64,000 nucleotides of DNA from a virus. Under the pieces are notes generated by a model. It did no database searches. It was not told where the DNA came from and was given only the letters and a program-made list of their open reading frames with translations. Below, in pieces: positions 29,201 to 47,599 of the stretch. Every line of letters begins with the position of its first letter. Position 1 is the first letter of the stretch. The translations under genes were made by a program, and so were the position numbers. The stretch is taken from the IMG/VR virus record IMGVR_UViG_3300042868_011620, positions 32,001-96,000 of that record. One strand, 5' to 3'.

Positions 29201-29407
29201 CATCATCGCTTTAATAGCCATGTGTTGAAAAGGAAACAAAGAGACTCCTGTCATGAATTCGGAAGTGAACGAGGGATTTTCTTTTAAAAATTTATATAAT
29301 AAAATTTTAGATTTTCTCTCGTCAATAAATCCTTTGGTATTTAGAATTTCTTCATTAATTCCTCTGAATTTATTGTGTAGTTTTTGATGTCCAGCTTCCC
29401 AACTCAT
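26300..29407 (-). CDS. terL: terminase large subunit containing an intein
   Basis: Walker A-like SRGMSKS, LRGFRF..IIDE Walker B, C-terminal RNase H-like FDP..SDDFA..KDSYSA. Confidence 0.9.
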   Translation of the reverse strand: MSWEAGHQKLHNKFRGINEEILNTKGFIDERKSKILLYKFLKENPSFTSEFMTGVSLFPFQHMAIKAMMDSDYFLGIWCLDENEYVLTESGFKKIKDVNVGERVRSRNKLNLVTDKKFNAPNEKGLYIKTFSGDSFKAKLGHKTLIYNSLTLDLEFKEIETLSTEDFLPIKLGMNCWGDAQLVENSPKMNIEDCDYWYFLLGYMIGDGYFDDYTMHWCSEDSKVIDMTIAKAKEYFPKNKIICRSRADNGFLEMGISSKDLIDWLKSIGFDRSLKAKNKIIPDSILQINEQKMAALISGIFSADGYCSILKDKRYSNSKTVKLGLKNTSIELLRQVKMLLNNFGVESSIRYSGSHKDVPYYDLKIPKSGHQKFSDRIGFISDHKQDNLLEVLNLPSRKYQINLVPNLGTYLKKKYKTWQKLFGERGNFGKDMCLDSALSAKFLDEKDRQALLVLKNENIYFSKIETITSIETSTVDITVDSEENYVGNGIVHHNSRGMSKSFSTAVFAILDATLNQGVHIGIISKSFRQSKMIFRKIEEISRSPKAGFLAQCITRISKTNDEWIIEIGRSRITALPLGDGEKLRGFRFQRMIIDELLLMPEKILNEVILPFLSVVENPTERQQLHDLESKLIAKGEMIEEDRYRWPSNKIIGLSSASYKFEYLYKLYQEYERLIMHPDRQDGAHRVIMHFSYDCAPQQLYDQNLLSQAKATMSQSQFEREFGSVFTDDSSGYFKVSKMALCTVVDGEGQSVEIMGESKAEYIASFDPSWSESDGSDDFAIQLIKLNPSKKGGTVVHSYAMAGTNLKKHIEYFHYLLSNFNIIAVVGDYNGGVQFLSACNESEVFKRDGLKLDTFDFDFDNIADYDKSLREARSQYNLTTKRIVHLRKPSSFWIRYANELLQGSFDHRRIWFAGMAIDDDYSRQKTAKISIDDIKYSKIEEDLSSGAKLIDFIEHQKDMIELIKVQCALVQVTTSTQGTQSFDLPSNLKKQKGANRARKDSYSALVLGNWMMHMYYDMMAVEAAAAPIGFTPMFIC
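27926..29173 (-). mobile_element. intein with LAGLIDADG homing endonuclease (416 aa)
   Basis: Starts CLDENEYV, ends GIVHHN followed by Ser; LLGYMIGDG and ISGIFSADG motifs. Confidence 0.92.
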
Positions 29408-34800: not shown

Positions 34801-34959
34801 TTAGTGTGCGCCGTGGTATTTTGCATCGTCCCATGCAGCTTCTTGCGCATCCCGTTCATGTTCTAACGCATCGGCCATGTCATCGTAACCGTCCAACTGT
34901 TTTTCCCATGCGATGATTTTTGCGATTGCCAGTTTCTGTGCTTCGGTGATTTCGTTCAT
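34801..34959 (-). CDS. hypothetical acidic 52-aa protein
   Basis: MNEITEAQKL...YHGAH, read manually; preceded by TTGCGC-N16-TATAGT. Confidence 0.65.
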   Translation of the reverse strand: MNEITEAQKLAIAKIIAWEKQLDGYDDMADALEHERDAQEAAWDDAKYHGAH

Positions 34960-35061
34960 GTGATTACTATACCCCATGGCGAGGAAAGCGCAAACTCTTT
35001 TTTCTTCTTTTAGAAACTTTTTTCAGCCCCAAAAAAAACTCCTAAAAGCTCAAAATAAAAG

Positions 35062-35089
35062 TTGCGTTCTCCCATTCCTCGCCTATAGT
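35062..35089 (+). promoter_or_regulatory. early sigma70-like promoter (representative)
   Basis: TTGCGT-N16-TATAGT with A-rich UP tract, ATG 8 nt downstream; similar copies near 35518, 36049, 36878, 37336, 37548, 38187, 38642, 39202, 40098, 41161, 42169, 43165, 44301. Confidence 0.8.
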
Positions 35090-35097
35090 AGGGAATC

Positions 35098-35292
35098 ATG
35101 AACGAACAAGAAATGACAGACGCAGGCTACGAAAATCTCGGCTTCTCCAACGGTTGGAGTGATGAGTTCCACGCGCAAGTGATGGCGCTATGGTTCAAAC
35201 ACGGTGGACGCCCCGTGGCCCGCTACAAGGGAGCAAGGCAAGATGTCTTTGCTGTAGACGGTGCCAAAATCTTCTGGACCACAAGCCTCTAA
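35098..35292 (+). CDS. hypothetical early protein
   Basis: Promoter-ORF-terminator cassette. Confidence 0.7.
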   Translation: MNEQEMTDAGYENLGFSNGWSDEFHAQVMALWFKHGGRPVARYKGARQDVFAVDGAKIFWTTSL

Positions 35293-35305
35293 CACTAGCA
35301 AGACA

Positions 35306-35331
35306 ACCCACCCGAAAGGGTGGGCTTTTTT
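35306..35331 (+). terminator. repeated intrinsic terminator (representative)
   Basis: CCCACCC-GAAA-GGGTGGG-C-TTTTTT; copies near 35837, 36813, 37122, 38021, 38476, 38969, 39894, 41957, 43008 and, on the minus strand, 34431. Confidence 0.88.
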
Positions 35332-35351
35332 GTGTTAGAGAGGCGGGAGTC

Positions 35352-35426
35352 ATAAGTCGTTGATTATCAACGCCCTAACAATTTTTGCCCCCCGCTCGCG
35401 TAAGTCGTTGACTTTCAACGAGTTAC
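35352..35426. repeat. double 27-bp palindrome element (representative of 12)
   Basis: GTAACTCGTTGA-NNN-TCAACGAGTTAC twice, starts 48 bp apart. Confidence 0.9.
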
Positions 35427-35553
35427 GATGACGCTCTTGCCTATAACATATAGCGTTCGCGCCATTGTCAAGCGCAAAGTTTCAGGAAAGAAAAAGCCTA
35501 AAAGATCAAAATAAAACTTGCGTTCTTTCCTTCCTCGCGTATACTAAGGAATC

Positions 35554-35823
35554 ATGTTCACCACTACTCATCCCGCCTTCAAGCTCGCTCGTAAAGCCAC
35601 CACCCTCGAACTGCAAATGCAGTTCGACGATCAACTCATCAAGGTTATGATCAAGATCGGAGCCAAGCACACCTACAAAGCCCTTCATGAAGAAACCCTT
35701 AAGCAGGGCAAGCTGCCACTAGCATACCGCCTAGTGATCACTCCCTTCCATCAGAAAGCCATCTGGTTCCAAGTGGAGAAGGGAACACGGTTCGATATGT
35801 ACCTCATGACTGCCAACCTCTAA
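35554..35823 (+). CDS. hypothetical early protein, paralogue of 37371..37526
   Basis: LQMQFDDQLIKV..ALHEETLK vs LQIHFDSLVVKV..AVHKETVK. Confidence 0.7.
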   Translation: MFTTTHPAFKLARKATTLELQMQFDDQLIKVMIKIGAKHTYKALHEETLKQGKLPLAYRLVITPFHQKAIWFQVEKGTRFDMYLMTANL

Positions 35824-36084
35824 CACTAGCAAGATGACCCACCCTTCGGGGTGGGCTTTTTTATGTTAGCAAAAGGAGAGTTATAAGTCGTTGACTGTCA
35901 ACGAGTTACGAAGTTGCACCCCGCGCCCGCGTAACTCGTTGATTATCAACGAGTTATCAATTCCCACTCGCCTATAACATATATGACTTGTGCCATTGTC
36001 AAGCGCAAAGTTTCAGGAAAAAAAATCTTTTAAATCAATAAAAATGTCTTGCACCTTTCCCCTGATCAGGTATAGTAGGGGATC

Positions 36085-36219
36085 ATGAACGACACCACTA
36101 CATTCCACGACCTGTTCACTAACTTCTCCCCGCACTGGCCCTCTGACGCTGGCGAGGTGGCAGAATACGATGCCTTCCTTGCTGAGTTCCACGCTCAAGT
36201 GGAGGATCAAGAAGCCTAA
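36085..36219 (+). CDS. hypothetical 44-aa acidic protein
   Basis: MNDTTTFHDL...EDQEA, read manually between promoter and hairpin. Confidence 0.6.
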   Translation: MNDTTTFHDLFTNFSPHWPSDAGEVAEYDAFLAEFHAQVEDQEA

Positions 36220-36268
36220 CAACTTAGCCCACCCTTCGGGGTGGGCACACCACACCCTATAACACATT

Positions 36269-36520
36269 ATGATTGAAACCCTCGACACTGACCTGATGGC
36301 TCTCATGTTCCGCAAGATGGCAACTAAGCTATACATGGGATTGACCGTGAGCGAATCGCACAGTTTGATACATAACCTTTCTGTGCTGAGCACTCTCACA
36401 ACAGGTTTATCGCCATGTGAAGATAATACAATGCTGGCTGAATTGCTAGAGAATCAGGCGACTCATGCTGTGAATCGGCACATGGCTGAATTAATCAATG
36501 TGCTGATGCAAGATGGCTAA
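36269..36520 (+). CDS. hypothetical protein
   Basis: 83-aa ORF. Confidence 0.55.
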   Translation: MIETLDTDLMALMFRKMATKLYMGLTVSESHSLIHNLSVLSTLTTGLSPCEDNTMLAELLENQATHAVNRHMAELINVLMQDG

Positions 36521-36542
36521 CACAATATAGAATCAAATCAAA

Positions 36543-36800
36543 ATGACAAACACTGACAAATATCATCAAGCAATCGTCAAGCGCGATGAAGCTTGGCAAA
36601 CGTGGAATGAATTTCATGCAGCTTGCCGCGAAGCTTACGTTGCCGCCACTAACGCACCTGATTTCACTTACGGTGAAACCCTGTGCTGGGAAAAATACGA
36701 GGCAACTTGTAAAAAGCGCGAGGACGCTTATGTTGAAGCGGTTGATGCTGATGAAGATGTTTGGAGAGCAAAAAACTGGGCAAACAATTACGGCGCATAA
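36543..36800 (+). CDS. hypothetical helical protein
   Basis: 85 aa ending at TAAC-terminator repeat. Confidence 0.7.
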   Translation: MTNTDKYHQAIVKRDEAWQTWNEFHAACREAYVAATNAPDFTYGETLCWEKYEATCKKREDAYVEAVDADEDVWRAKNWANNYGA

Positions 36801-36912
36801 CACTAGCAAGACAGCCCACCCTTCGGGGTGGGCTTTTTTGTGCCTTGAAAAAGTTCTCAAAAGAAGAAAAAAAAACTTGCGCTCTCTCCTTCCTCATGTA
36901 TACTAGGGAATC

Positions 36913-37116
36913 ATGAACAAACCACTTAAAGCTAGTGACGCCGAGGACTATCGCCGTATAATCGAAGTGCTAAAAAAACTTGTAGCTTTCGATGATCTTA
37001 TGAATGACCCCACATGGGAGGATTCAGGAACTTACATGGGCGCTTATCATGCCTACTATAAGGGGAATTTTGAAGTATGGAAAGAAGCTAGATCATTTCT
37101 ACCCCAAGAAGCCTAG
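36913..37116 (+). CDS. hypothetical early protein
   Basis: Own promoter and terminator. Confidence 0.7.
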   Translation: MNKPLKASDAEDYRRIIEVLKKLVAFDDLMNDPTWEDSGTYMGAYHAYYKGNFEVWKEARSFLPQEA

Positions 37117-37370
37117 CAATTAGCCCACCCTTCGGGGTGGGCTTTTTTGTGTTAGAGAAAGGGGAGTCATAAGTCGTTGACTGTCAACGACTTACGAGGC
37201 TGCGCCCCGCGTTTGCGTAACTCGTTGATTTTCAACGTGCTATCAATTCACCCCTCTCTATAACAACTCTCTGTCTCGCGATTGTCAAGCGAGAATTTCA
37301 GAAAAAGAAAATACCTAAAAACTCAAAAAACATCTTGCGTTCATCTCATCATGAGGTATACTAAGGAACA

Positions 37371-37526
37371 ATGAAGCAAGCTTCCTCCCACGTTACTCTC
37401 CAGATTCACTTCGACTCTCTTGTTGTCAAGGTCAAGGTCAAGCGCAACGATGCCGCTATCAATTCCGCCGTTCACAAGGAAACTGTCAAGCGCAAAAATC
37501 TTCCAAACTTCTACACCTTTGCTTGA
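37371..37526 (+). CDS. hypothetical 51-aa protein, paralogue of 35554..35823
   Basis: MKQASSHVTLQIHFD..., read manually after promoter at 37336. Confidence 0.65.
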   Translation: MKQASSHVTLQIHFDSLVVKVKVKRNDAAINSAVHKETVKRKNLPNFYTFA

Positions 37527-37584
37527 ATTTAAAGTCTTAAAAAACACTTGCATCTCTCCCATCACCTGCTACACTAAAAACATC

Positions 37585-38007
37585 ATGAAACTGATCCTTC
37601 CTCTTTGCTCCTTCCTCGCCGTTGCCGCTTGCGTCTACACCCTGGACTTTCCCGCTACTAGCATCTTTTACGCTTTGTTAGTTCTCTGGGCAGTGACTGG
37701 CATTGCCCTGTCCATCATGATTCTAAACGCTCGCCTTCGCCGCAAGGCTAAGCAAGCAAAAATGTATGCCCACCTTGAAAAGCTGATTGTTGCTAGCAAA
37801 GGCAAATTCTTCTCTCTGAGCTTCACCTTGCCCAACGGCAAAAAACAAGTTATCAATGGCAAAAATTTCTACTACTCTCTGCTGCGCCTCAACGAGCCTG
37901 TGCGCTACAAATTTGTTGATAGGAACCGCAAAGCTTTCACGCAGCTTAAAAGAGCCTCAAACGTTCGGTTCATCTGCGGCAAAGTGAACACTATGGTCGG
38001 CCACTAA
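37585..38007 (+). CDS. membrane-anchored SH3/Sm-like (WYL_2-like) protein
   Basis: Two hydrophobic helices plus KGKFFSLSFT..NG...INGKN, paralogous to 42205..42480. Confidence 0.6.
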   Translation: MKLILPLCSFLAVAACVYTLDFPATSIFYALLVLWAVTGIALSIMILNARLRRKAKQAKMYAHLEKLIVASKGKFFSLSFTLPNGKKQVINGKNFYYSLLRLNEPVRYKFVDRNRKAFTQLKRASNVRFICGKVNTMVGH

Positions 38008-38222
38008 CACTAGCAAGACTAGCCCACCCTTCGGGGTGGGCTTTTTTGTGTTAGCAAAGCGGGAGTCATAAGTCGTTGATTATCAACGAGTTACGAAGTT
38101 GCACCGCGCAGCCGCGTAAGTCGTTGATAATCAACGTGCTATCAATCTTTAAAAAGCATTTTAATTCTAAAAGAGTGAAAAAAAACTTGCACTCTGCCGC
38201 TTCTGCTGTATAGTGGTGGATC

Positions 38223-38459
38223 ATGAAGTCCTCCCATTCTTCCCCTCCCGTCTATCGTCAACTCGTTCGCTTTGCGCAGCACTTCTACTGTAGCAGCGAT
38301 AAAACTGAAGTGTCCTCTTATCGGCAATATAGCAATGGTGATGTTGAACTCGAAGTTGTCCATTGTTCTGGCAGGCTATCACTCTACGATTCGGTTGCTT
38401 GGACTAATGACATCCTTGGGGTACTGGATGAACATGGCGAATCAGCACTCTGCTGGTAG
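38223..38459 (+). CDS. hypothetical early protein
   Basis: Promoter-ORF-terminator cassette. Confidence 0.65.
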   Translation: MKSSHSSPPVYRQLVRFAQHFYCSSDKTEVSSYRQYSNGDVELEVVHCSGRLSLYDSVAWTNDILGVLDEHGESALCW

Positions 38460-38677
38460 CTAACACTAGCAAGATAGCCCACCCTTTGGGGTGGGCTTTT
38501 TTGTGGTCGTGAATAGACTTGCGTAACTCGTTGAGTATCAACGAGTTACGAGGTTGCACCGCGCAGCCGCGTAAGTCGTTGATAATCAACGTGCTATCAA
38601 TCTTTAAAAAGCATTTTAATTCCAAAAGAGTAAAAAAAAACTTGCACTCTGCCGCTTCTGACGTATAGTAATGGATC

Positions 38678-38962
38678 ATGAAGTCTCTCTCTTCTCTCTC
38701 TCCTACTCAAGCCATTATCATCCGCTTTCTCTGCAATCTGTGGAAGCGTAATCACGCTCAAGTCAAACTTGCCAGAATCAACTCAGTCAAGGCCCATTCT
38801 GGTCTTGCCACAAATCGCCTCTTAGATATGTTAGACGCTGAACTGACAGCGGCAGAAACTCGCCGCAACATTGCCTTTCATGAATTGATGAATTTTGTCG
38901 ATGAAATCGGATTGGACGATTCGGAAGTTGTTGACTTGTTAGACCCTAAACTGAGTCGCTAA
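38678..38962 (+). CDS. hypothetical early protein
   Basis: Promoter-ORF-terminator cassette. Confidence 0.7.
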   Translation: MKSLSSLSPTQAIIIRFLCNLWKRNHAQVKLARINSVKAHSGLATNRLLDMLDAELTAAETRRNIAFHELMNFVDEIGLDDSEVVDLLDPKLSR

Positions 38963-39140
38963 CAACTTAGCTCACTCGAAAGAGTGGGCTTTTTTGTGGT
39001 CGCGAATAGACATGCGTAACTCGTTGATTATCAACAGGTTACGAGGTTGCACCGCGCAGCGCCGTAACTCGTTGATTATCAACAACTTATGAACGCCCTC
39101 TTCTCATCCATCGATCCCAGACTCTCTATTTAGCACTTTG

Positions 39141-39197
39141 CTATTTGCAACTCTCCTATTTGCAACTCTCCTATTTGCAACTCTTTCACTTGCAACT
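39141..39197. repeat. 15-bp tandem repeat CTATTTGCAACTCTC
   Basis: Three copies plus one degenerate copy; related cluster at 44760-44862. Confidence 0.85.
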
Positions 39198-39238
39198 CCT
39201 CTTGACAAGAGAAAAATTCTCGCGTAAGATGAAGTCCT

Positions 39239-39436
39239 ATGAACCAAATAGAACAAGCCCTCTTTTATCGCGACGGACTGTCTGTAGCCGAAGCGGAATT
39301 CTTTGTTAGAGAAGCTCGCGCCCGCGTATGGGATGGCGAAAGTCCTGAAAAAATTCTACAAGACGAATTCTTTCTTGAACCAGAATATGCTATCGACTTG
39401 ATCGGCTCCCAATCTTTTACCGCAATTGATGAATAA
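39239..39436 (+). CDS. hypothetical protein
   Basis: 65 aa after a TTGACA...TAAGAT promoter. Confidence 0.7.
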   Translation: MNQIEQALFYRDGLSVAEAEFFVREARARVWDGESPEKILQDEFFLEPEYAIDLIGSQSFTAIDE

Positions 39437-39487
39437 TCTCTTGACTCTCGCCCAAAATAATGTATTTTAAATCTCCACTACACCTTA

Positions 39488-39663
39488 TGAAAAAACTCCT
39501 CTTCCTTCTCAACAAAACCTTTTTCCCCGCATCTAAAGAAATCGAAGAATGGTTTCGCGCTGGGGATCAACCAGTCTATGGCGCGAAAGTCTTTTCTCAA
39601 AAATCTTGGATGGAAAAACAAATCGAAGAATCGATGCGCAAAAAATCCCTTGGACTTCACTAA
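39488..39663 (+). CDS. hypothetical protein
   Basis: MKKLLF start. Confidence 0.5.
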
Positions 39664-39689
39664 TCTCACCTTTGAACAATACAAATCAA

Positions 39690-39878
39690 ATGGACAAACC
39701 TTCAAACGAAATCATGGCAATCATTTGTAGCTTAGCCGCCAATGCTTTGCAGCAAAACAAAAATTGGGAAGATGCGATTGAAACGCACGGCTACATGGCA
39801 GAAATGGAATACTGCAACAAAGAAAAGGAGAGCCTCAAGCTTCTTGACGAATGGATCGACCAAGTCGAAGCTGAATAA
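39690..39878 (+). CDS. hypothetical protein
   Basis: MDKPSNE start; ends before terminator. Confidence 0.6.
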   Translation: MDKPSNEIMAIICSLAANALQQNKNWEDAIETHGYMAEMEYCNKEKESLKLLDEWIDQVEAE

Positions 39879-40170
39879 GATCCTAACGCTACTAGCCCAC
39901 TCTTCGGAGTGGGCTTTTTACTGCTCATCGCTAAACTGTTGATTATCAAGGACTTACAGCGCTGCGTGGCCCGCCCGCGTAACTCGTTGATAATCAACGA
40001 GTTATCAATTCACACCATCTTATAACAATTGTTGCGCCCGCCATTGTCAACCGCGAATTCAAGAAAAAAAATAATCACATCAAATTCAAAATAAAAGTTG
40101 CGTTCTCCAGTTCCTCGCCTATAGTCTTTTTAGCTGCACGTTGCAGTTCTTCACACTAACTAACTACACT

Positions 40171-40929
40171 ATGTCCCTCCTCCTTGCCAAAAACGTCGTT
40201 TCCCGCGAAGCTCTGTCCCGCGTCCCCACTCCTGATGCGGTGGATCGTTTTCATCCCATTGCCCATGGTGAACTTGCTGATGCAACTCGCCTTGCCATTT
40301 CCAACGCTGGTTTGGAAATCCTCGAAGAGGAACACGCTCTTGCTCGCGGCGGCTTGCGCTACTTTGGCGGGTTCGCTTTGCGCGGTGCTGGAATTGATAG
40401 CGCTGACCGCAACATCGTGCTGGGCCTCCGCAACGCTCACGATAAAACGTTTGCCGCCAGCATCTGCGTTGGCAACCGCATGATCGTTTGTGACAACCTG
40501 TGCTTTGCTAGCGACATCAAGCTGGCCCGCCGTCACACCACCAACATCATGAACGACATTCCTCGCGTTCTTGCTAGTGCAGTGTCCCGCGTGGTGAGTC
40601 ACTGGAACGACATGGGCAAGCGCATCAAAGCCTATCAAGAAACCGTGATCGGTGACGCCACCGCTTCGGACCTGCTGGTGAAGCTGGTGGATAGCAAAGC
40701 CTTCCCCGCCCGCGACATTTACAACGCGATTCTGGAGTTCCGCGCTCCCCGCCATCCTGAGTTTGCTGGCAACTCTCTGTGGAGCCTTTACAACTCTGTG
40801 ACCGAGAATCTCAAGAACGGAGACTTGACCAAGCTCCCCGCCCGCACCATGGTGATGCAAAGCGTGTTTGACCGCGTGGCGCATCATGAAAGCATCATCG
40901 AAATCGATGCTGAAATCCTCGTCGCCTAA
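40171..40929 (+). CDS. DUF932-like protein
   Basis: HPIAH, GLRNAHDK, G.R.IVCDNL, RRHT, SLWSLYNSVTE motifs. Confidence 0.7.
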   Translation: MSLLLAKNVVSREALSRVPTPDAVDRFHPIAHGELADATRLAISNAGLEILEEEHALARGGLRYFGGFALRGAGIDSADRNIVLGLRNAHDKTFAASICVGNRMIVCDNLCFASDIKLARRHTTNIMNDIPRVLASAVSRVVSHWNDMGKRIKAYQETVIGDATASDLLVKLVDSKAFPARDIYNAILEFRAPRHPEFAGNSLWSLYNSVTENLKNGDLTKLPARTMVMQSVFDRVAHHESIIEIDAEILVA

Positions 40930-41194
40930 CCGCTAGCGCAAGCCCCGCAATCCTAACCGATTGCGGGGTTTTTTGCGTCTACTCTCAGAGCTTCATAACT
41001 CGTTGAGTATCAACGAGTTACGGGGCTGCGCCCCGCGTTCGCGTAACTCGTTGATTATCAACGACTTACGACTGCGCCTCTCTTTATAACAACAACTCGT
41101 TCCGCCTTTGTCAACCGCGTTTTTCAAGAAAAATAAAATGCTTTAAAATGATTTAAAATGTTGCAATCCTTTTTCCCCGTGCTATAGTTTGGCC

Positions 41195-41881
41195 ATGCAG
41201 CTACTCTCTAAAAACAATACGAAGATCATCAAGGGGCAAAAACTCAAGGTGATGACATGGGGACTCTCTCTGGTCCCTAACACAATGAACGGCAAGATCA
41301 ACCTTTGCCCCTTTGCTAGTGATGGGTGCATTTTTGGTTGCTTGGAAACCGCTGGTCGCGGCGTCTTTGAAAACGTAAGGGCAGCGCGAATGAAACGCAC
41401 AATGCTGTTTGTTGACCACCAAAAAACTTTCTTGATTCAATTGGAGTCGGAAATTAATGCTGCGCAGAAAAGCGCCAAGCGGGCAGGAATGAAGTGTGCC
41501 ATTCGGCTGAATGTGCTTTCCGATGTGGGATGGCACAAATTGCTAGACTTTTCCAAGTGGCCCGACATCCAGTTCTACGACTACACCCCTAACACTAACA
41601 GAATGGTGCAGTACCTCCAAGGCAAACTCCCTAGCAATTACCACCTCACCTTCAGCCGCAAGGAAAACAACCAGACTGCTGTGGAGTTGATCGCGGCCAT
41701 GGGCGGCAACATCGCCGTCGTGTTCGATGAACTCCCTAACACTTACCTTGGCAAAACTGTTGTCAACGGTGATGACACCGACGTTCGCTTTCTGGACGGT
41801 CAAAACGTTATCGTGGGACTGAAAGCCAAGGGTCGCGCCAGAAAAGATTCCTCTGGGTTTGTGGTCAAAGCACTAGCATAA
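41195..41881 (+). CDS. GP88-family protein
   Basis: CPFAS.GC...CL..AGRG, IRLNVLSD, FYDYT, YHLTFS, GDDTDVRFLD, VGLKAKG. Confidence 0.75.
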   Translation: MQLLSKNNTKIIKGQKLKVMTWGLSLVPNTMNGKINLCPFASDGCIFGCLETAGRGVFENVRAARMKRTMLFVDHQKTFLIQLESEINAAQKSAKRAGMKCAIRLNVLSDVGWHKLLDFSKWPDIQFYDYTPNTNRMVQYLQGKLPSNYHLTFSRKENNQTAVELIAAMGGNIAVVFDELPNTYLGKTVVNGDDTDVRFLDGQNVIVGLKAKGRARKDSSGFVVKALA

Positions 41882-42204
41882 ATTATGATCACCACCCTTT
41901 CCATCATGCTGATCCTCACCTTAATATCCCTAACCAAAAAGAAAGCCTAGCAAACTAGCCCACCCTTCGGGGTGGGCCTTTTTGTGTTAGCGAAGGGGGA
42001 GTCATAAGTCGTTGAGTATCAACGAGTTACGCGGCTGCGCCCCGCGCCCGCGTAACCCCTTGAAAATCAACGAGTTACGAGGTTCCATGCGCCTATAACA
42101 ATTTCTTTTCCTACGCTTGTCAACCGAGAATGTGGAGGAAAATAATTGCTTTAAAATCAAAAGAAATGTTGCACTCTGCCAAGGATGGGCTACTATAGTG
42201 AACT

Positions 42205-42480
42205 ATGAACAACCAACTTGACGATCTCATTGCTGCCACTAAAGGCAAGTTCTTCAGTATCACCTTCACTAAGAAGGACGGCACCTCCCGCACCATCAAT
42301 GGCAAGAACCGATATGATCGGTTAGTGAAGGGCGTTGGCTCTCCCGCAACCGTCGCTTTGAAAGAAGGCGGTTACACTAGCTTTGTGAACCGTAACCGTG
42401 ATGGCTGGGTTTCTGCACACAAGGAAAACGTGCTGACTTTCAAGTGTGGCAAGATTCGAGAAACTTTCGTGATGATCTGA
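42205..42480 (+). CDS. SH3/Sm-like beta-barrel (WYL_2-like) protein
   Basis: GKFFSITFTKKDGTSRTING. Confidence 0.65.
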   Translation: MNNQLDDLIAATKGKFFSITFTKKDGTSRTINGKNRYDRLVKGVGSPATVALKEGGYTSFVNRNRDGWVSAHKENVLTFKCGKIRETFVMI

Positions 42481-42512
42481 GACAGTCTCTTTAACCCATA
42501 CCTCATAACAAT

Positions 42513-42716
42513 ATGACCGTTTATCAAATGTTGATTCGCAAAGCTCATCTTTCAGATGGATACAGGGCCGCTGCTGCCTTGAATAAAGAATCTTACAGGC
42601 GTCTTCGCGAAGCAAAGCTTCTTTATGGCCACAACACTCTCAAAAGCCATAAGCACTTTGAGAAAGTCAAGATGCAAATGGCAAGAGAAGCTACAGCAGT
42701 TATTCGCTCCCTTTAA
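42513..42716 (+). CDS. hypothetical protein, paralogue of the next gene
   Basis: MTVYQMLIRKAHL...REATAVIRSL. Confidence 0.7.
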   Translation: MTVYQMLIRKAHLSDGYRAAAALNKESYRRLREAKLLYGHNTLKSHKHFEKVKMQMAREATAVIRSL

Positions 42717-42734
42717 CCCACAACCAACAACAAC

Positions 42735-43001
42735 ATGACCACCTATCAATTCCTGATTAAAAAAGCTCACCTCAACGATTGTGAGGAAGACTCTAATTCC
42801 ATCGTGGCAGAAAAACATTGGGATATCGCGACAGATGAGCGCAACCATCGCATTCAAACTGGTATGGCAATTTTCTGCTATCTTTCTCATGGTGGCAGTG
42901 AAATGTTGCAATCGCCTGCTGCTATCAACTTCAAGCGGAAAATCGAACGCGACCTGAACAGGGAAGCTGCCGAAGCGATTCGCGCTCTGTATCAAGAATA
43001 A
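42735..43001 (+). CDS. hypothetical protein, paralogue of the previous gene
   Basis: MTTYQFLIKKAHL...REAAEAIRAL. Confidence 0.7.
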   Translation: MTTYQFLIKKAHLNDCEEDSNSIVAEKHWDIATDERNHRIQTGMAIFCYLSHGGSEMLQSPAAINFKRKIERDLNREAAEAIRALYQE

Positions 43002-43199
43002 CTAATCAGCCCACCCTTCGGGGTGGGCTTTTTTGTGTTAGCGAAGAGGGAGTTGTAACTCGTTGAGTTTCAACGACTTATGGCGCTGCACGGCGCAGCC
43101 GCGTAACCACTTGATAATCAACGTGCTATCAATGTTTAAAAAAGCATTTTAATTGAAAAAAAGTGTTGCACATCCTCCGTTCTACTGTATAATATTCCC

Positions 43200-43547
43200 A
43201 TGGACACTCGCTGTTACTTCAACCTACATAAGAGAAAGATTTCTGTTCAGAAAAAAATCAATGGAGTTTGGAAGGTGGTTCGCCATGCTGACTCTGTCGC
43301 TTTGGACAACGCTACCTTTCAAGTGTCCCAAGCTGGACGGGAGCGCGTCTTGCAACAGAAGCGCAAAAATGTTCATGCTTACATCTGTGGCACTGAATCA
43401 GGAAGTTTCGACTACTACAAGAAGCTCCGACAAGTCAACTACAATCCCTATCTCTTCGGTTACTTTTTCGAGAAGGAGTCTGGAGATCCAGTGTACAAAG
43501 CCCCCTCTGTTTTAATCTGCGGAAAAAAAATCATCATCACCCACTAA
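43200..43547 (+). CDS. conserved phage hypothetical protein
   Basis: YFNLHK...VSQAGRERVL..KRKNVHA...YNPY motif recalled from phage proteins. Confidence 0.7.
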   Translation: MDTRCYFNLHKRKISVQKKINGVWKVVRHADSVALDNATFQVSQAGRERVLQQKRKNVHAYICGTESGSFDYYKKLRQVNYNPYLFGYFFEKESGDPVYKAPSVLICGKKIIITH

Positions 43548-43663
43548 TATGTCAGCCAAAAAAAACAAAATGCCCAACCCGTTCATCTTTCTGCTGGTAT
43601 ACACTTTGTCAGTGGGCAGCATCCTGATGATTCTTATGAAACTCTTTCCTCGCGGCCTTTAAT

Positions 43664-43897
43664 ATGACTAGTTCCAACATCATCGTCACTGCTTTAAATA
43701 CCACTGTCGATCCCATTCTTGACAAGATCATCATGGACGCGGCAGATTTAGAGAATAGTTTTAATTCTTATCAACAAGCTGTAGAGTTTTCCTCTACAAG
43801 ATGCACATACGAGCAAGCAATGATTCTTTCCATCGCTTATAAAAGGCTCGCCCAAACCATGGAAGACATTGCCTCACACATCAAACCAAAAATATGA
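43664..43897 (+). CDS. hypothetical protein
   Basis: 77-aa ORF overlapping the next start. Confidence 0.55.
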   Translation: MTSSNIIVTALNTTVDPILDKIIMDAADLENSFNSYQQAVEFSSTRCTYEQAMILSIAYKRLAQTMEDIASHIKPKI

Positions 43898-44193
43898 GTC
43901 TCGACAAAGCAATCCAATACGGCAAAGAAAAGCGCGTACAGTATCGCCGCAGCTTAGCCTTTGACCGCAGTTGCCGCAACCATGGCAACTGCGGTTACTG
44001 TGAGAGTAACCGAACGATTCAATCTCAGAAAGAATTGCGTCGAATCGAATCACAAGAGCATGACCTTGATGATCCATGCTATCTTGATGATTTAATCAAT
44101 GGGGAAATCACTGTTGAAGAATGGAATAAAAGAGTTGACGCTCACGATGATTTACACCATGACTGGAGCGCTTATGTGCAATACATTAGGTAA
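43894..44193 (+). CDS. conserved phage hypothetical (Cys/His) protein
   Basis: DRSCRNHGNCGYCESNR. Confidence 0.7.
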   Translation: MSLDKAIQYGKEKRVQYRRSLAFDRSCRNHGNCGYCESNRTIQSQKELRRIESQEHDLDDPCYLDDLINGEITVEEWNKRVDAHDDLHHDWSAYVQYIR

Positions 44194-44336
44194 CTCGTTG
44201 AATATCAACGAGTTACGAGGCTGCGCCCCGCGTTCGCGTAAGTCGTTGAATATCAACAGGTTACGAGGATTTAAAAAAGAATTTAAATTCAAAAAAACTC
44301 TTGCATCTTGCTCGCCCTGCACTATAGTCTTTTATT

Positions 44337-44618
44337 ATGATTAAACTTGCTGTACACGATGGAACCCTGCATCTCTATTCTGAAGACTTCAATGGCGACG
44401 ACCTTGGCGACTTTTTTGGAACTGAAGAATTTGTGGAGCTACTTACTAACGATACCTGCGCCAGTGTCACGTATGACAAAGGAGTGTTTGATAAACAGAT
44501 GTTAGCAGGCATCCTTTACGATTACATCGAATGTGGTTGGATGAAAAATGTTAGGGAGGTGGAGCTGCCAGATGGTCGCACGTTCCATATTGAATTCAAC
44601 CTTGAATTCTCTGCGTAA
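44337..44618 (+). CDS. acidic hypothetical protein
   Basis: Own promoter; flanked by double palindromes. Confidence 0.7.
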   Translation: MIKLAVHDGTLHLYSEDFNGDDLGDFFGTEEFVELLTNDTCASVTYDKGVFDKQMLAGILYDYIECGWMKNVREVELPDGRTFHIEFNLEFSA

Positions 44619-44874
44619 CAAGAGACGCCCTTGTAACCCGTTGAATATCAACGAGTTACGAGAGCGGGGGGCGCAGCCGCGTAACCCCTTGATTATCAAC
44701 GAGTTACGACTGGCACTGTGCTGGATTTTATGTTAGCATCACTCTTATTAAGGGGTCGCTTATTTGCAACTTTCTCGTTTGCAAGTCTTTATTAAGAGTT
44801 CCCTTATTTGCAAGTTTCTCGTTTGCAAGCTCTTATTTGTGTTAGTCTTATTTGCAAGTTTCTCGATTGTAAGT

Positions 44875-44993
44875 GTCCGATTGATGGCTTTGAACCACCT
44901 TCTCCAAAATTACTTGCTCCCTCTAGTTATTCACATTGCGCGTCCGCACGAAGGGTAATTGTGGCGCTTTAGACCAAAAATAAGCTAATCGGA
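44875..44993 (-). ncRNA. tRNA-like RNA with enlarged anticodon arm
   Basis: TCCGATT/AATCGGA acceptor stem, GCTT/AAGC D-arm, GGTGG-TTCAAAG-CCATC T-arm, ~60-nt branched anticodon arm. Confidence 0.6.
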
Positions 44994-45003
44994 AATTGTT
45001 TTG

Positions 45004-45632: not shown

Positions 45633-46100
45633 TTATGCAGGAATGATCTGGAGTTTGCCAAGAGTCTCTTTACGCTTGCCAGTAACAAAGCGCAAGCCAA
45701 CTTCTCTGTGCCACTTGGGCAAGCGGTGATAAGAGCCAAGCTTTTCTCCACTCTCAGAGTTGATCATGTAATACTTGGGCTTGACGCGCACTGCCTCGCT
45801 AGTCATGTACTGCTTAGGCTCAGCACCAATCTGCACACAGATGTCTCTCCAGATTTTGCCGTGACCAACCTCGCCATGTTTGAGGTAAGCAAGAGCGTGA
45901 GCAATCTCATGCAGGATGGTATCGTGAACTTGAGCAACGCTGTTGCACTCGGTCAAGACAGAGGAGAGGTGAATTTCTTTGAGCTTGAAATAACAAGTTC
46001 CGAACACGCGCTTTTTACGAGTGAACTGGAAAGTCCAATCGGACAAACCATAGTGGTTCATGAGATACAAGGCGTGATTTTTGGCAAGTGCTGCGTTCAT
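45633..46100 (-). CDS. SprT-like zinc metalloprotease
   Basis: FGTC, TILHEIAHAL, GHGKIWR. Confidence 0.85.
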   Translation of the reverse strand: MNAALAKNHALYLMNHYGLSDWTFQFTRKKRVFGTCYFKLKEIHLSSVLTECNSVAQVHDTILHEIAHALAYLKHGEVGHGKIWRDICVQIGAEPKQYMTSEAVRVKPKYYMINSESGEKLGSYHRLPKWHREVGLRFVTGKRKETLGKLQIIPA

Positions 46101-46382: not shown

Positions 46383-47288
46383 CTACAGACTAGCAAGCAC
46401 ATTCAAGCCCTTGCTAGTAATTTTTCTAGTCACATCAATTCTAATGAAGTTTTTCTTCAGCAAGAAACTTTCAACATCGCGTTGCAAAGTACTGCGACTC
46501 AAACCAGTAACTGCACTAAGCATAGTCAAGGTGCAATCGCCTCTTTCTTTCAAGATGTTTAACACTTCGATTTCAGAATTGCTCAAACCATTCTTTTCAA
46601 TGTTCACCAAGCTGCAAAGATCTTCCCAAGAACTAGAGTCAAAGAAACTCTGATTGTTTTTATTACAGTACCGCAAGATTTCATTTGCTCTGAGAACTGC
46701 ACTGCGAGCATTGCCCCGAACGCTATCAGCAATGGTTTCGAGAACATCATCGCGAAACTCTACCCAGGAAGTTGCCACTTTGATGATCTGCGCCATCTCC
46801 CCACTACTGTATGGTTTAAAATCAATGATTGTGAATCGATCCTTCAATGGGGCGAACACTTTCTCTTGATCAGTAGTAGCAAACAAATAAGTTTGTTTGT
46901 CAAAGTTGAACTCTGCAATCTCATCATTAAAGCTGAACTCTCTCACTGCTGGGCCTTGAGTGTTAAACACAGTGAGGAAAGTCATCATTAAACTTTTGGG
47001 CAAAGCATGACACTCATCAAACAAAACTGTAACAGCTTTATTCATAATGTGCGGCACAAAGATTTGCTCGAAGAACTGATTAGAGTCTTTGATGGTGGAA
47101 CAGTTAATTTCCATCATTGGTTTCTTCAGCGCCTTGGCAAAGCCTCGGCAGAATTCAGTCTTGCCCGAACCCTTCGCGCCATTCATCATGATGAAAGGAA
47201 TGCGAGTGTTGGAGGTTTGACTGTCCAGATAAAAACCAAGTTGTCGTTTAATGTGATCCTGCCCAATGAGAGAAGAGAAGTTTTCCAT
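46383..47288 (-). CDS. ruvB: RuvB-like Holliday junction branch migration AAA+ ATPase
   Basis: LIGQDHIK, GAKGSGKT, FDECH, ATT, PLKDRF, RGNAR and C-terminal winged helix (VESFLLK..FI). Confidence 0.8.
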   Translation of the reverse strand: MENFSSLIGQDHIKRQLGFYLDSQTSNTRIPFIMMNGAKGSGKTEFCRGFAKALKKPMMEINCSTIKDSNQFFEQIFVPHIMNKAVTVLFDECHALPKSLMMTFLTVFNTQGPAVREFSFNDEIAEFNFDKQTYLFATTDQEKVFAPLKDRFTIIDFKPYSSGEMAQIIKVATSWVEFRDDVLETIADSVRGNARSAVLRANEILRYCNKNNQSFFDSSSWEDLCSLVNIEKNGLSNSEIEVLNILKERGDCTLTMLSAVTGLSRSTLQRDVESFLLKKNFIRIDVTRKITSKGLNVLASL

Positions 47289-47338
47289 TGTAGTGTAGTG
47301 TATAGTGGAAAGGAAGGTAGCCGCACTGCGGAGGGTTG

Positions 47339-47599
47339 TCAAGCGTTTTCTAGTGGCGCATACTCATCAAAGTTTGTCACGCTAAAAGAAATCTTGCTTT
47401 CTGGTTCTTCAGACTCAACAACAGTTTTAACGAGGTTTACTTTTTGTTCAATGCTGATGTGATTTTCGCGCAACCACATGGTAGAAACTTTCACCACTGC
47501 ATTCTCTCCAACCATAGAGATTAAGTCTTGCAGTTTAATTTTGGCAAAGCTGTTGCTACCAGGAGGACGACCACGACGTTTAGGGGATTCAGTGTTCAT
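47339..47599 (-). CDS. small AT-hook-containing protein
   Basis: PKRRGRPPGS. Confidence 0.65.
   Translation of the reverse strand: MNTESPKRRGRPPGSNSFAKIKLQDLISMVGENAVVKVSTMWLRENHISIEQKVNLVKTVVESEEPESKISFSVTNFDEYAPLENA

Follow-up and report, generated by a model that had tools for sequence, protein, structure and literature searches.

Twin palindromes between early-gene cassettes of a lake phage, candidate sites for an IHF-like host protein

The early-gene region of an uncultured lake phage carries twelve pairs of a 27-bp palindrome whose conserved columns resemble a symmetric form of the IHF site. It is quite possible, though we stop short of calling it probable, that these are paired duplex sites for a homodimeric host protein of the IHF/HU type, which would shape and insulate the early promoter cassettes.

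Twelve palindrome pairs between early cassettes

The window (the whole stretch of 64,000 nucleotides that was analysed) holds 24 copies of the palindrome at up to seven substitutions, all of them in pairs, with neither an unpaired palindrome nor a copy outside the array anywhere in the 64 kb. The pattern at up to three mismatches gave 19 matches, every one within 35400-44707, and none in 100 dinucleotide-preserving shuffles (chance expectation 0). Each pair is laid out as 27 + 21 + 27 bp. The original prediction of twelve pairs, for six of which a 48-bp distance had been counted, is borne out, since the start-to-start distance is exactly 48 bp in 12/12; its start positions were right except for 39932, which is actually 39931. 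As had also been noticed, the centre triplet is variable and the 21-bp spacers are GC-rich (mean 80% G+C vs 46% across 34801-45000). The pairs are as follows.

35352..35426, copies 35352/35400: pair 1, left copy with a degenerate right outer arm
35883..35957, copies 35883/35931: pair 2
37169..37243, copies 37169/37217: pair 3
38068..38142, copies 38068/38116: pair 4, short module with the forward -35 element 44 nt past the pair
38523..38597, copies 38523/38571: pair 5, short module
39016..39090, copies 39016/39064: pair 6, 15-nt direct repeats begin 36 nt downstream
39931..40005, copies 39931/39979: pair 7, degenerate left copy, DUF932 gene downstream
40995..41069, copies 40995/41043: pair 8, GP88-family gene downstream
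42004..42078, copies 42004/42052: pair 9
43055..43129, copies 43055/43103: pair 10, short module
44190..44264, copies 44190/44238: pair 11, no preceding terminator, first bases hold the stop codon of ORF 43894-44193
44633..44707, copies 44633/44681: pair 12, no forward promoter after it, 44-nt direct repeats next

Apart from pairs 11 and 12, each pair follows one small early cassette's terminator and precedes the promoter of the next. A scan found nine intrinsic-terminator-like hairpins with a T run preceding pairs, and 11 forward early promoter-like sites flank the small ORFs. At 6/12 window pairs only, a promoter-like element on the minus strand faces inward (TTGACA, 17 nt, TGTTAT, then 16 nt to the pair).

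35307..35324, plus strand: terminator-like hairpin and T run before pair 1
35838-35855, 37122-37143, 38021-38042, 38476-38497: further terminator-like elements
38969-38990, 39894-39915, 41958-41977, 43008-43029: further terminator-like elements
35443..35471, minus strand: inward-facing promoter-like element
35974..36002, minus strand: inward-facing promoter-like element
37260..37288, minus strand: inward-facing promoter-like element
40022..40050, minus strand: inward-facing promoter-like element
41086..41114, minus strand: inward-facing promoter-like element
42095..42123, minus strand: inward-facing promoter-like element
35518..35545, plus strand: forward early promoter-like site (TTGCGT, 16 nt, TATACT; ATG 8 nt further on)
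36049-36076, 37335-37362, 38187-38214, 38642-38669, 39202-39230: equivalent forward sites
40098-40125, 41161-41188, 42169-42196, 43166-43193, 44301-44328: equivalent forward sites
39126..39200, plus strand: iteron-like direct repeats, 15-nt unit, four registered copies
44745..44876, plus strand: iteron-like direct repeats, 44-nt unit, three copies

One further module, at 36813-36912, has no palindrome pair.

Likeness to the IHF consensus

In published descriptions, the IHF consensus WATCARnnnnTTR occupies one half of the footprint, the two kinks in the DNA are separated by 9 bp, and the middle T of TTR is 6 bp away from the kink closest to it. The best-kept columns of the palindrome are T16 C17 A18 A19 and T24 T25 A26 with their mirror images, these seven being conserved in 87-100% of copies. 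Columns 14-26 read N-(A 44-53%)-T-C-A-A-C-G-A-S-T-T-A, so that TCAA, four bases and TTA match the consensus. By geometric reasoning only, the kink register agrees as well: an A/R step and a second kink 9 bp away fall on the symmetric steps between columns 9 and 10 and between columns 18 and 19. Because this register puts the dyad on W, the dyad coincides with the palindrome centre (column 14), and the conserved columns, read from sequence, amount to a version of the IHF consensus with two-fold symmetry about the predicted protein dyad.

The match comprises seven specified bases per half-site plus the register, and it is to an E. coli consensus, whereas the carrier bacteria are not Proteobacteria. 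In E. coli a heterodimer binds a site that has the consensus in one half and often an A-tract in the second; most copies here carry it in both halves, as would fit a homodimer. Conservation of the 'n' columns (C G A S) and the outermost G/C goes beyond what the E. coli consensus requires, and the centre is not always T-W-A. Some copies, such as right copies ending GTGCTAT and some single sites, retain one outer arm only.

Distribution in viruses and bacteria

At least 119 stretches in IMG/VR carry the twin element, most of them from relatives of the lake phage. Promoter-like TTGACW stands at discrete distances from the pairs (21-23, 29-33 or 39-42 nt) in 104/445 flanks, and promoter-like elements point inward in 133 flanks vs outward in 43. 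Pair spacing is constant inside one genome and varies among genomes from 42 to 58 bp, so the expected conservation of spacing in relatives holds within each genome and fails from one to another. The two sites had been placed on roughly opposite helix faces, which is right at 48 bp (about 206 degrees at 10.5 bp per turn); relatives, with spacings of 42, 49-53 and 58 bp, use every helical phase, and the face relation between the two sites is thus not conserved. In the 58-bp class the palindrome centre is GCG and the spacer holds a G+C hairpin of its own.

The exact 25-bp core was also found in 26 stretches of bacterial assemblies, against about 0.1 expected by our own arithmetic, and the carriers are FCB/PVC taxa throughout, bar one array-bearing contig binned as Enterobacterales. 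Phage-like contigs were binned into Verrucomicrobiales, Flavobacteriaceae and 'Enterobacterales' MAGs, which is weak host evidence. Fibrobacter, Akkermansia and other FCB/PVC bacteria carry single copies, several per genome: five bacterial genomes had 11, 9, 8, 3 and 1 sites at up to three mismatches, and a reversed-pattern control gave none. Near-perfect sites (up to two mismatches) are patchy, in 5/121 sampled Verrucomicrobiota genomes. The genes adjoining the single sites are unrelated to each other. Sites lie 3-13 nt past tRNA genes in 5/26 stretches, adjoin iterons with a RepA gene in two (L164, L175), and are also found upstream of promoters; in some Bacteroidota a T run comes after the single copy. 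Iteron origins, tRNA ends and promoters are typical contexts of IHF sites, and the likeness thus extends to context, including tRNA/att-like positions.

A host IHF-like protein as candidate binder

In each of four lineages checked (Fibrobacter, a Verrucomicrobiales MAG, Akkermansia and a Cytophagaceae MAG) we found one HU-family paralogue that scores higher as IHF than as HU, with scores under the curated IHF cut-offs. IHF chains are the best solved match of the Fibrobacter (L181) and Akkermansia (L186) proteins in a PDB search, and the chain of Borrelia Hbb (2np2) is among the matches of the host proteins. HU-family genes occur in every bacterium, and their presence proves little. Searches of three related phage records, two of which are rated 100% complete, turned up no gene for HU/IHF, a resolvase, a tyrosine integrase or ParB_N. 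The bacterial copies, beside mutually unrelated genes in genomes without homologues of two phage proteins (the 660-aa structural protein and GP88), make a host origin of the candidate binder plausible. Among the binders originally listed the host factor fits best, while recombinase and partitioning protein find no gene in the three phage records. Hbb and TF1 of phage SPO1 both have the IHF/HU fold, form homodimers and sharply bend the DNA at sites they prefer. The sites of TF1 are close to early promoters of SPO1, but TF1 prefers modified DNA and is phage-encoded, whereas no HU-family gene was found in the three relatives of the lake phage.

From the anatomy, the conservation pattern, the near-absent covariation and the distribution we infer both the binder and every functional effect that follows. 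Each palindrome would be a duplex site for one dimer of a DNA-bending IHF/HU-family protein. Its likeliest identity is the one IHF-like paralogue of the host, working as a homodimer, and the host is presumably a bacterium of the Fibrobacterota, Bacteroidota or Verrucomicrobiota-Lentisphaerae groups. Kinks are predicted between T9 and T10 and between A18 and A19, 9 bp apart. Two such sites would sit 48 bp apart on a stiff G+C-rich linker, with a terminator on one side and the promoter of the next cassette on the other. The two sharp bends would cover the start region of the inward promoter-like elements and hinder these, may fold upstream DNA back over the outward early promoter, and may split neighbouring, strongly transcribed cassettes into separate topological units. 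At the two pairs with adjoining iteron-like repeats, the sites may help to build a replication origin. An IHF-type protein does not account for everything: the spacing spans all helical phases, so that a single bend geometry is not conserved, and the pairing in phages vs single sites in bacteria and the consistently G+C-rich linker are left unexplained.

More tentatively, the palindrome may be the site of an uncharacterised, sequence-specific, homodimeric IHF-like protein common to Fibrobacterota, Bacteroidota and Verrucomicrobiota/Lentisphaerae, and a large family of uncultured lake and marine phages would have built a new type of regulatory cassette from twin copies of it. If so, two protein-induced U-turns on a rigid G+C linker would switch between inward and outward promoter and insulate each early gene, and the motif would be a sequence marker for assigning orphan phages to host lineages.

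Other readings of the element

The palindromes could instead be operators of a dedicated dimeric regulator (winged-helix, Rrf2/TetR-like or ribbon-helix-helix) whose gene would lie in the phage or in a mobile element; two dimers at each pair would shut off or time the early promoters, as do repressors of strong early or anti-defence operons. We regard this as unlikely, though well worth weighing. The promoter-like elements that fire into the pairs at discrete distances, and the excess of inward ones, are what one would expect where a repressor sits, and there is fair conservation in the 'n' columns. Conserved blocks, inner and outer, in a palindrome of 27 bp would likewise fit dimers of the two-domain or winged-helix type. 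The region 46383-47339 codes for a conserved AAA+ protein whose C-terminal part is a winged helix, and both relatives compared (G001, G003) encode it too. However, 24 early-region ORFs have no DNA-binding domain at E <=1 except one match, at 0.13, to the HrcA wing-helix model, and the widely shared early proteins are only GP88, DUF932, L5-gp82-like and WYL_2-like. Moreover, the Akkermansia and Fibrobacter sites lie beside unrelated genes in genomes without homologues of the phage proteins (a search of site-bearing bacterial genomes for the 660-aa structural protein and GP88 of the phage found none), and neither a regulon nor an autoregulated neighbour emerges.

It is improbable that the terminator-pair-promoter module is chiefly a substrate by which early genes are swapped, deleted or inverted through homologous recombination, with the palindromes as passengers or cruciform-cutting hot spots. 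Modules are shared, yet for most intervening early ORFs not even sister contigs have a relative. Two records (L104, L117) each show the spacer in both orientations, and genes for a RuvB-like ATPase and an ERCC4-domain protein are present in the phage. Contigs of other lake runs link 35920 to 37167, 39092 to 43051 and 42032 to 44233, and also 39970 to 41031 with the two sides on opposite strands. Every joint falls at a pair, but the sides of these joints are only 24-35 letters in de Bruijn contigs, and they may be assembly artefacts at repeats. Homologous recombination needs similarity only, which leaves unexplained both the conservation of the 27 bp among phages whose structural proteins are 30-55% identical and the palindromes in bacterial chromosomes, and the module lacking a pair works. 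A 3-bp centre is ill-suited to a 2-bp staggered cut. No site-specific recombinase was found: 0/3 related records match PF00239 or PF00589, and neither is among the best 25 of 36 window families listed.

The arrangement recalls the PeSL (promoter-early stem-loop) cassettes of T4-like phages, which are described as a terminator plus an early promoter (PMC2839356, PMC4122927). In the window, too, short terminator and early-promoter modules recur between small and variable genes, most of them orphans, of a plastic region, and both kinds of module are possible recombination points. Set against that description, the twin palindrome, the G+C-rich linker and the inward second promoter are additions in the lake phage. 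The phage itself is unrelated to T4-like myoviruses: its best terminase matches are 24-29% identical, cultured phages gave no nucleotide match, and most large ORFs of the window have no PHROG family.

It is very improbable that the element acts as a folded single strand, with either a pair of 12-bp hairpins or a single long one forming in RNA transcribed from the inward promoters or in DNA that is extruded or single-stranded. Such a structure might work as a hairpin promoter, stabilise the 5' end of an RNA, or be a small RNA or a mobile repeat of the REPIN kind. Single-stranded 75-mers give much better folds than their shuffles (z -3.0 to -9.5), a measure that is not diagnostic because any palindrome folds well. 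Inward promoter-like elements would put the pair at a transcript's 5' end, and the spacer hairpin of the 58-bp class and the T run in some Bacteroidota point the same way; but the window pairs sit behind strong terminators, with an inward promoter at half of them. Compensatory arm changes, claimed for some copies, are weakly present: arms pair in 84.3% of cells vs 82.6 +/- 0.5% when shuffled (150 copies), an excess of 1.7 points. Yet paired arm columns share no more than 0.06 bits of mutual information (234 distinct copies), position 5/23 is unpaired in 66/150 copies (44%) and position 8/20 in 33%, and G.T and A.C mismatches are about equal, neither strand being favoured. Pairing between left and right copies is not above permutation, with centres pairing below chance, and an Rfam search gave three chance-level matches only, all under gathering scores. 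This near-independent variation of the arms gives neither hairpin structure real covariation support. Neither compensatory change of the kind that marks an RNA or ssDNA hairpin element nor the two-hairpin alternative of the original prediction is supported.

At arm position 5/23 the counts are C-G 70, G-C 54, G-G 45 and C-C 41 (234 distinct copies), and this interchange of C and G fits minor-groove or shape readout by a putative protein. Together with the independent arms and the chromosomal single copies, it favours the other alternative originally offered, sites for two protein dimers.

A centromere-like or sink element that gathers a partition protein or titrates a host nucleoid protein during takeover is scarcely credible: the density of 24 strong sites in 9.4 kb and the single copies 6-40 nt from TGTTCCA-type repeats (Akkermansia, Fibrobacter, two viral contigs) speak for it, but that association is 12/367 core sites vs about 8 expected, 0/3 related records match PF02195 (ParB_N), the sites stand one-to-one with promoter cassettes rather than in a centromere-like cluster, and a sink would not require a fixed position relative to promoters.

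REP, BIME and REPIN elements are extragenic palindromes that stand behind genes as doublets with a fixed spacer, as the pairs do here, and an IHF site is present in some BIMEs. REPs need hairpins and the RAYT transposase to function, whereas the lake-phage palindromes are nearly without arm covariation and hold the IHF-like consensus inside the palindromes, not between them.

Palindrome pairs and the cassettes that carry them

The original prediction that 27-bp palindromes occur in pairs at a fixed 48-bp spacing holds for every pair in the window. At up to 3 mismatches the palindrome has 19 matches, and shuffled sequence has none. With up to 7 substitutions allowed the count rises to 24 copies, which make up 12 pairs spanning 35352-44707 with a start-to-start distance of exactly 48 bp in all 12, and at that tolerance the 64-kb window contains neither unpaired copies nor copies outside this interval. 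The 21-bp linkers are GC-rich as proposed, with a mean G+C of 80% against 46% in the surrounding region. The early region as a whole (~34-46 kb) has a G+C of 44-51%, versus 30-43% in the remaining window.

The window belongs to an uncultured tailed phage and codes for PhoH, ThyX, a CHAP lysin, three tRNAs and a 2852-aa ORF. Its 87 ORFs also include an ERCC4-domain protein, a staphylococcal-nuclease homologue, a Lar-like protein and a sigma-70 region-2 protein. Searches of 50,697 phage records (megablast with 35000-45000, blastn with one module and with one pair) found no similar DNA in cultured phages, with chance-level short matches at most, and the best matches of the terminase are 24-29% identical. 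DNA near-identical to the window is contained in 24 lake-water DNA runs, three of which are marked as possible sources of the window; no RNA run is listed among the 24. The related phage records G001 and G003 align to the terminase part of the large terminase subunit only, not to its intein.

Features of the window (coordinates; strand where assigned; description)
26300-29407; minus; large terminase subunit with intein (Intein_splicing and LAGLIDADG_3 homing-endonuclease domain, residues ~120-495)
36813-36912; module without a pair: usual terminator and forward promoter, neither palindrome pair nor inward element
39126-39200; iteron-like array 1: 15-nt unit, 4 registered copies, after pair 6
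44745-44876; iteron-like array 2: 44-nt unit, 3 copies, after pair 12
45633-46097; minus; SprT-like protein, just right of the palindrome array, beside tRNA-Arg
46383-47339; minus; RuvB-like AAA+ ATPase with C-terminal winged helix, conserved in G001 (36%) and G003 (55%)

Genes left of 34.9 kb lie on the minus strand, and about two dozen small plus-strand genes occupy 35.1-44.6 kb. The module order is gene end, G+C hairpin with a T run, palindrome pair, inward promoter-like element (in six modules), A-rich stretch, forward promoter-like site and ATG. A terminator scan detected nine of the terminator-like G+C hairpins with a T run among the modules; pair 11 lacks a preceding terminator and pair 12 a following promoter. 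The inward element (minus-strand TTGACA, 17 nt, TGTTAT) ends 16 nt short of the pair and stands back-to-back with the forward promoter, the two having the A/T-rich stretch in common. The forward site (plus-strand TTGCxx, 16 nt, TATAGT, TATACT or TATAAT) places the centre of the right palindrome copy near -139, -92 or -86 relative to the forward start. Because the ATG follows the second hexamer by just 6-9 nt in 10 of 11 forward sites (35545-44340; e.g. 35540-35556 and 43188-43202), the early messages are probably leaderless or nearly so. Shine-Dalgarno-like sequences are also absent before the internal genes of the small early operons.

Gene ends read CTAACAC...AGCAAGA and GTGTTAG follows the terminator (35289-35340 and equivalent module starts), so that a second, 7-bp inverted repeat encloses the terminator hairpin. 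In relatives of the 58-bp and 50-bp spacing classes (L063, L077, L097), CTAAC/GTTAG motifs are likewise common near pairs. The two iteron-like arrays have a TTTGCAA core in common and each begins 36-38 nt past a pair; the second is kept in the nearest relative (L028, 2336-2469). These arrays may be a replication origin.

Pairs and spacing in related viruses

The palindrome-pair element is much more widespread than the window alone could reveal. A 20-bp core pattern matched at least 119 IMG/VR stretches. At least two palindromes are present in 82 of those listed, and 68 of these 82 have at least one protein in common with the window. By sequence comparison, two whole records (109 kb and 148 kb) proved to be genuine relatives of the window phage: the structural module shows synteny at 30-55% identity, and identities reach 59-62% for DUF932 and 45-50% for GP88. 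Their palindromes occur solely in one or two short regions, which contain DUF932 and GP88 as well. No iterons clearly adjoin the pairs in G001 and G003.

Pairing is the rule among the matches listed, which hold 212 distinct viral pairs. The spacing in these was 50 bp (96 pairs), 48 (25), 42 (22), 58 (22), 51 (16), 52 (10) or 49 (8), with a few others. The expectation that spacing would be conserved in relatives was thus borne out mostly within genomes and not between them, where it differs from 42 to 58 bp: among listed stretches with at least 3 pairs, 31 of 40 have a single spacing and 35 of 40 stay within one base. Linker sequence differs between spacing classes and is G+C-rich in all main classes (0.65-0.89 versus 0.44 in the flanks), and both orientations of the linker occur inside L104 and L117. 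On these grounds spacing looks inherited together with each genome's repeat family. The relatives' spacing classes cover every helical phase, so phasing was rejected as a conserved constraint.

Copies in bacterial genomes

An exact 25-bp core recovered 26 stretches from a one-genome-per-species bacterial collection, where by our own arithmetic ~0.1 would be expected by chance. By record title they belong to Fibrobacter (7), Akkermansia (2, plus one further bin with the same flanks), Verrucomicrobiales (3), Victivallales (1), Lentisphaerae (1), Bacteroidota lineages (9) and 'Enterobacterales' (2, both on one bin contig). Four that carry arrays or pairs (L135, L140, L144, L146) look like phage contigs put into bins. 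The remaining stretches hold single sites, many within 40-320 kb contigs.

The proposed motif scan of candidate host genomes did find sites: at up to 3 mismatches, five of these bacterial genomes have 11, 9, 8, 3 and 1, whereas the reversed pattern has none in them, and all five lack a homologue of the phage 660-aa structural protein or of GP88. The distribution is patchy. At up to 2 mismatches, sites occur in just 5 of 121 sampled Verrucomicrobiota genomes, two of which carry 5-6 each and share sites.

The bacterial sites are mostly intergenic and stand beside unrelated genes: an M23 peptidase operon (same position in four Fibrobacter species), argS in Akkermansia, and genes for a TPR protein, FabD, RgpF, an integrase and a helicase. 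Twenty scanned neighbours revealed no common function that would indicate a host regulon. In 5 of the 26 stretches the site lies 3-13 nt past a tRNA gene, and two sites of one Verrucomicrobiales bin directly adjoin iteron arrays, with a RepA gene ~120 nt from one of them.

A candidate architectural protein

The best-kept columns of the palindrome (numbered 1-27, centre 14) are T2 A3 A4, T6 C7 and T9 T10 G11 A12, mirrored by T16 C17 A18 A19, G21 and T24 T25 A26; from the centre outward each arm reads (W)(A)TCAA, four bases, TTA. For E. coli IHF the consensus is described as WATCARnnnnTTR, located in one half of the footprint, with two kinks 9 bp apart held by prolines and the central T of TTR 6 bp from the nearest kink. 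This consensus and kink geometry, as described, would put the kink in the step between A and R and the protein dyad on W. As W is the central base of the palindrome, mirrored kinks would lie between columns 9 and 10 and between columns 18 and 19, 9 bp apart. Whereas the E. coli site is described as having the consensus in one half, the phage palindrome resembles that consensus as it would look carried by both halves, as expected for a homodimer.

Each of the four host lineages checked has a single HU-family paralogue with better scores against IHF models than against HU models, at scores below the curated IHF cut-offs, and IHF chains were the best match for the two paralogues searched against solved structures. 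The IHF-like genes of these lineages carry no palindrome indicative of autoregulation. Near Fibrobacter HU genes there are weak copies, one with 6 mismatches 118 nt behind one gene and one with 7 before another. No HU-family (PF00216) gene was found in three related phage records (G001-G003).

In Proteobacteria, tRNA ends, iteron origins and promoter-upstream positions are classic places of IHF sites. The contexts of the bacterial sites, and the window's iteron-like arrays after pairs 6 and 12, appear by analogy to match them. Our best reading of these sequence features, at just under even odds, is that the palindrome would be bound by an IHF/HU-type architectural protein. Literature searches on homodimeric IHF with palindromic sites found nothing relevant among the papers listed, and a full-text search for either 12-mer arm returned a single mitochondrial paper without relation to the element.

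It is possible, if rather unlikely, that a dedicated regulator binds the palindromes instead. Such a regulator has no candidate gene and would leave the bacterial chromosomal sites unexplained. Among the 25 listed of the 36 Pfam families matched by the 87 window ORFs there is no classical repressor, and at E <=1 the 24 early-region ORFs yielded just WYL_2 (0.0012) and an HrcA wing-helix model (0.13) as candidate binders.

Promoter-like elements facing the pairs

In 133 of 445 distinct flanks of pairs, an A/T-rich stretch with TTGACW behind it points towards the pair within 60 nt, and in 43 it points away. The TTGACW-to-pair distances are discrete: 21-23 nt (32 flanks), 29-33 (55) and 39-42 (17). 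Some pairs have an inward promoter-like element on both sides. The second hexamers of these inward elements are weak (TAnnnn types; TGTTAT in the window).

In our working model, an IHF/HU-type protein on the pair would cover about +1 to +80 of the inward promoter, and the bends at the pair would hinder that promoter while favouring the outward one and setting neighbouring cassettes apart. IHF is described as able to pin plectonemes, dividing DNA into topological domains (PMC9519438).

If this reading is correct, it would define the DNA specificity of an architectural protein in groups whose nucleoid proteins are almost unstudied, including Akkermansia and Fibrobacter, both culturable and open to direct testing. 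It would also show how a large uncultured phage family organizes host takeover, through many one-gene, apparently leaderless cassettes, each flanked by a terminator, a pair of bend sites and either one promoter or two. The motif would be a simple host clue for phages without a detected cultured relative, and could tie this large orphan family to its hosts.

Cassettes and possible recombination

The element is most aptly classed as a recurring promoter-terminator cassette with putative architectural-protein sites. The idea of mobile promoter-terminator cassettes, as in the promoter-early stem-loop (PeSL) cassettes of T4-like phages, would, if our reading is true, reach beyond those phages. Recombination of the PeSL kind is improbable as the primary function, and may well coexist with the architectural-site reading. 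Contig joints at pairs are suggestive of it but may be assembly artefacts. A site-specific recombination site is disfavoured, no recombinase gene having been found in three related phage records. In contigs of three other lake runs (depths 34, 4 and 5), 19 other letters replace the 77-aa gene at 43664-43897 (43662-43903), which looks like a population-level cassette difference not ending in a pair.

Half-sites more likely than hairpins

The original prediction also allowed for two-hairpin RNA or single-stranded DNA structures, and cited compensatory arm changes. Single-stranded 75-mers reach much better folds than their shuffles (z -3.0 to -9.5), a score that is undiagnostic, as any palindrome does so; covariation is the real test. 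Mutual information is at most 0.06 bits for each of the 12 arm pairs in 234 distinct copies. At position 5/23 of these copies C-G (70) and G-C (54) occur alongside G-G (45) and C-C (41), and G.T and A.C mismatches are about equally frequent in the arms.

When pairs were counted in 150 of 419 distinct copies (19 from the window, the others a random draw), 84.3% of cells were paired, where shuffles gave 82.6 +/- 0.5% and 1 of 500 attained the observed value; the covariation score was 0.137 against 0.114 (0 of 500), an excess that related sequences can produce without any structure. The compensatory changes therefore amount to an arm-pairing excess that is real but tiny. A long hairpin between left and right copies does not exceed permutation (arms 0.773 versus 0.778 and 0.788), and their centres pair more rarely than chance. 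Rfam gave no match to the element reaching gathering scores.

A folded RNA or single-stranded DNA element fails these covariation tests and is very unlikely. Because arm covariation is nearly absent, we conclude from the sequence alignments that it is each half-site, rather than pairing, that is under selection. Readout of the minor groove or of DNA shape would fit the interchangeability of C and G at one position. A role as centromere or sink is very improbable, as no ParB gene was found in three related phage records and TGTTCCA-type repeats, though present at some loci, show no overall enrichment near sites (12 of 367 versus ~8 expected).

Single sites in other contexts

Eight unrelated viral contigs (L005, L036, L071, L080, L105, L019, L065, L078; G+C 0.30-0.63), with no protein in common with the window, have single sites with the inner core and one outer arm inside conserved non-coding stretches. 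In the Bacteroidota stretches L141, L150, L156, L134 and L138 the single palindrome has a T run and AGGG after it; two are directly behind tRNA genes and two between integrase-family and helicase genes. Here the palindrome may also serve as a terminator, or else mark where an integrative element ends.

The Akkermansia argS region repeatedly contains a 16-bp palindrome, TGTTCCACATGGAACA, or halves of it. In that region, at two Fibrobacter loci and in two viral contigs, it is 6-40 nt away from single 27-bp palindromes, and it may be a partition-type site. Its recorded positions are L147 3097, 4949, 6337; L154 794, 2646; L050 18-33, where direct repeats follow as well; and L108 1259-1280.
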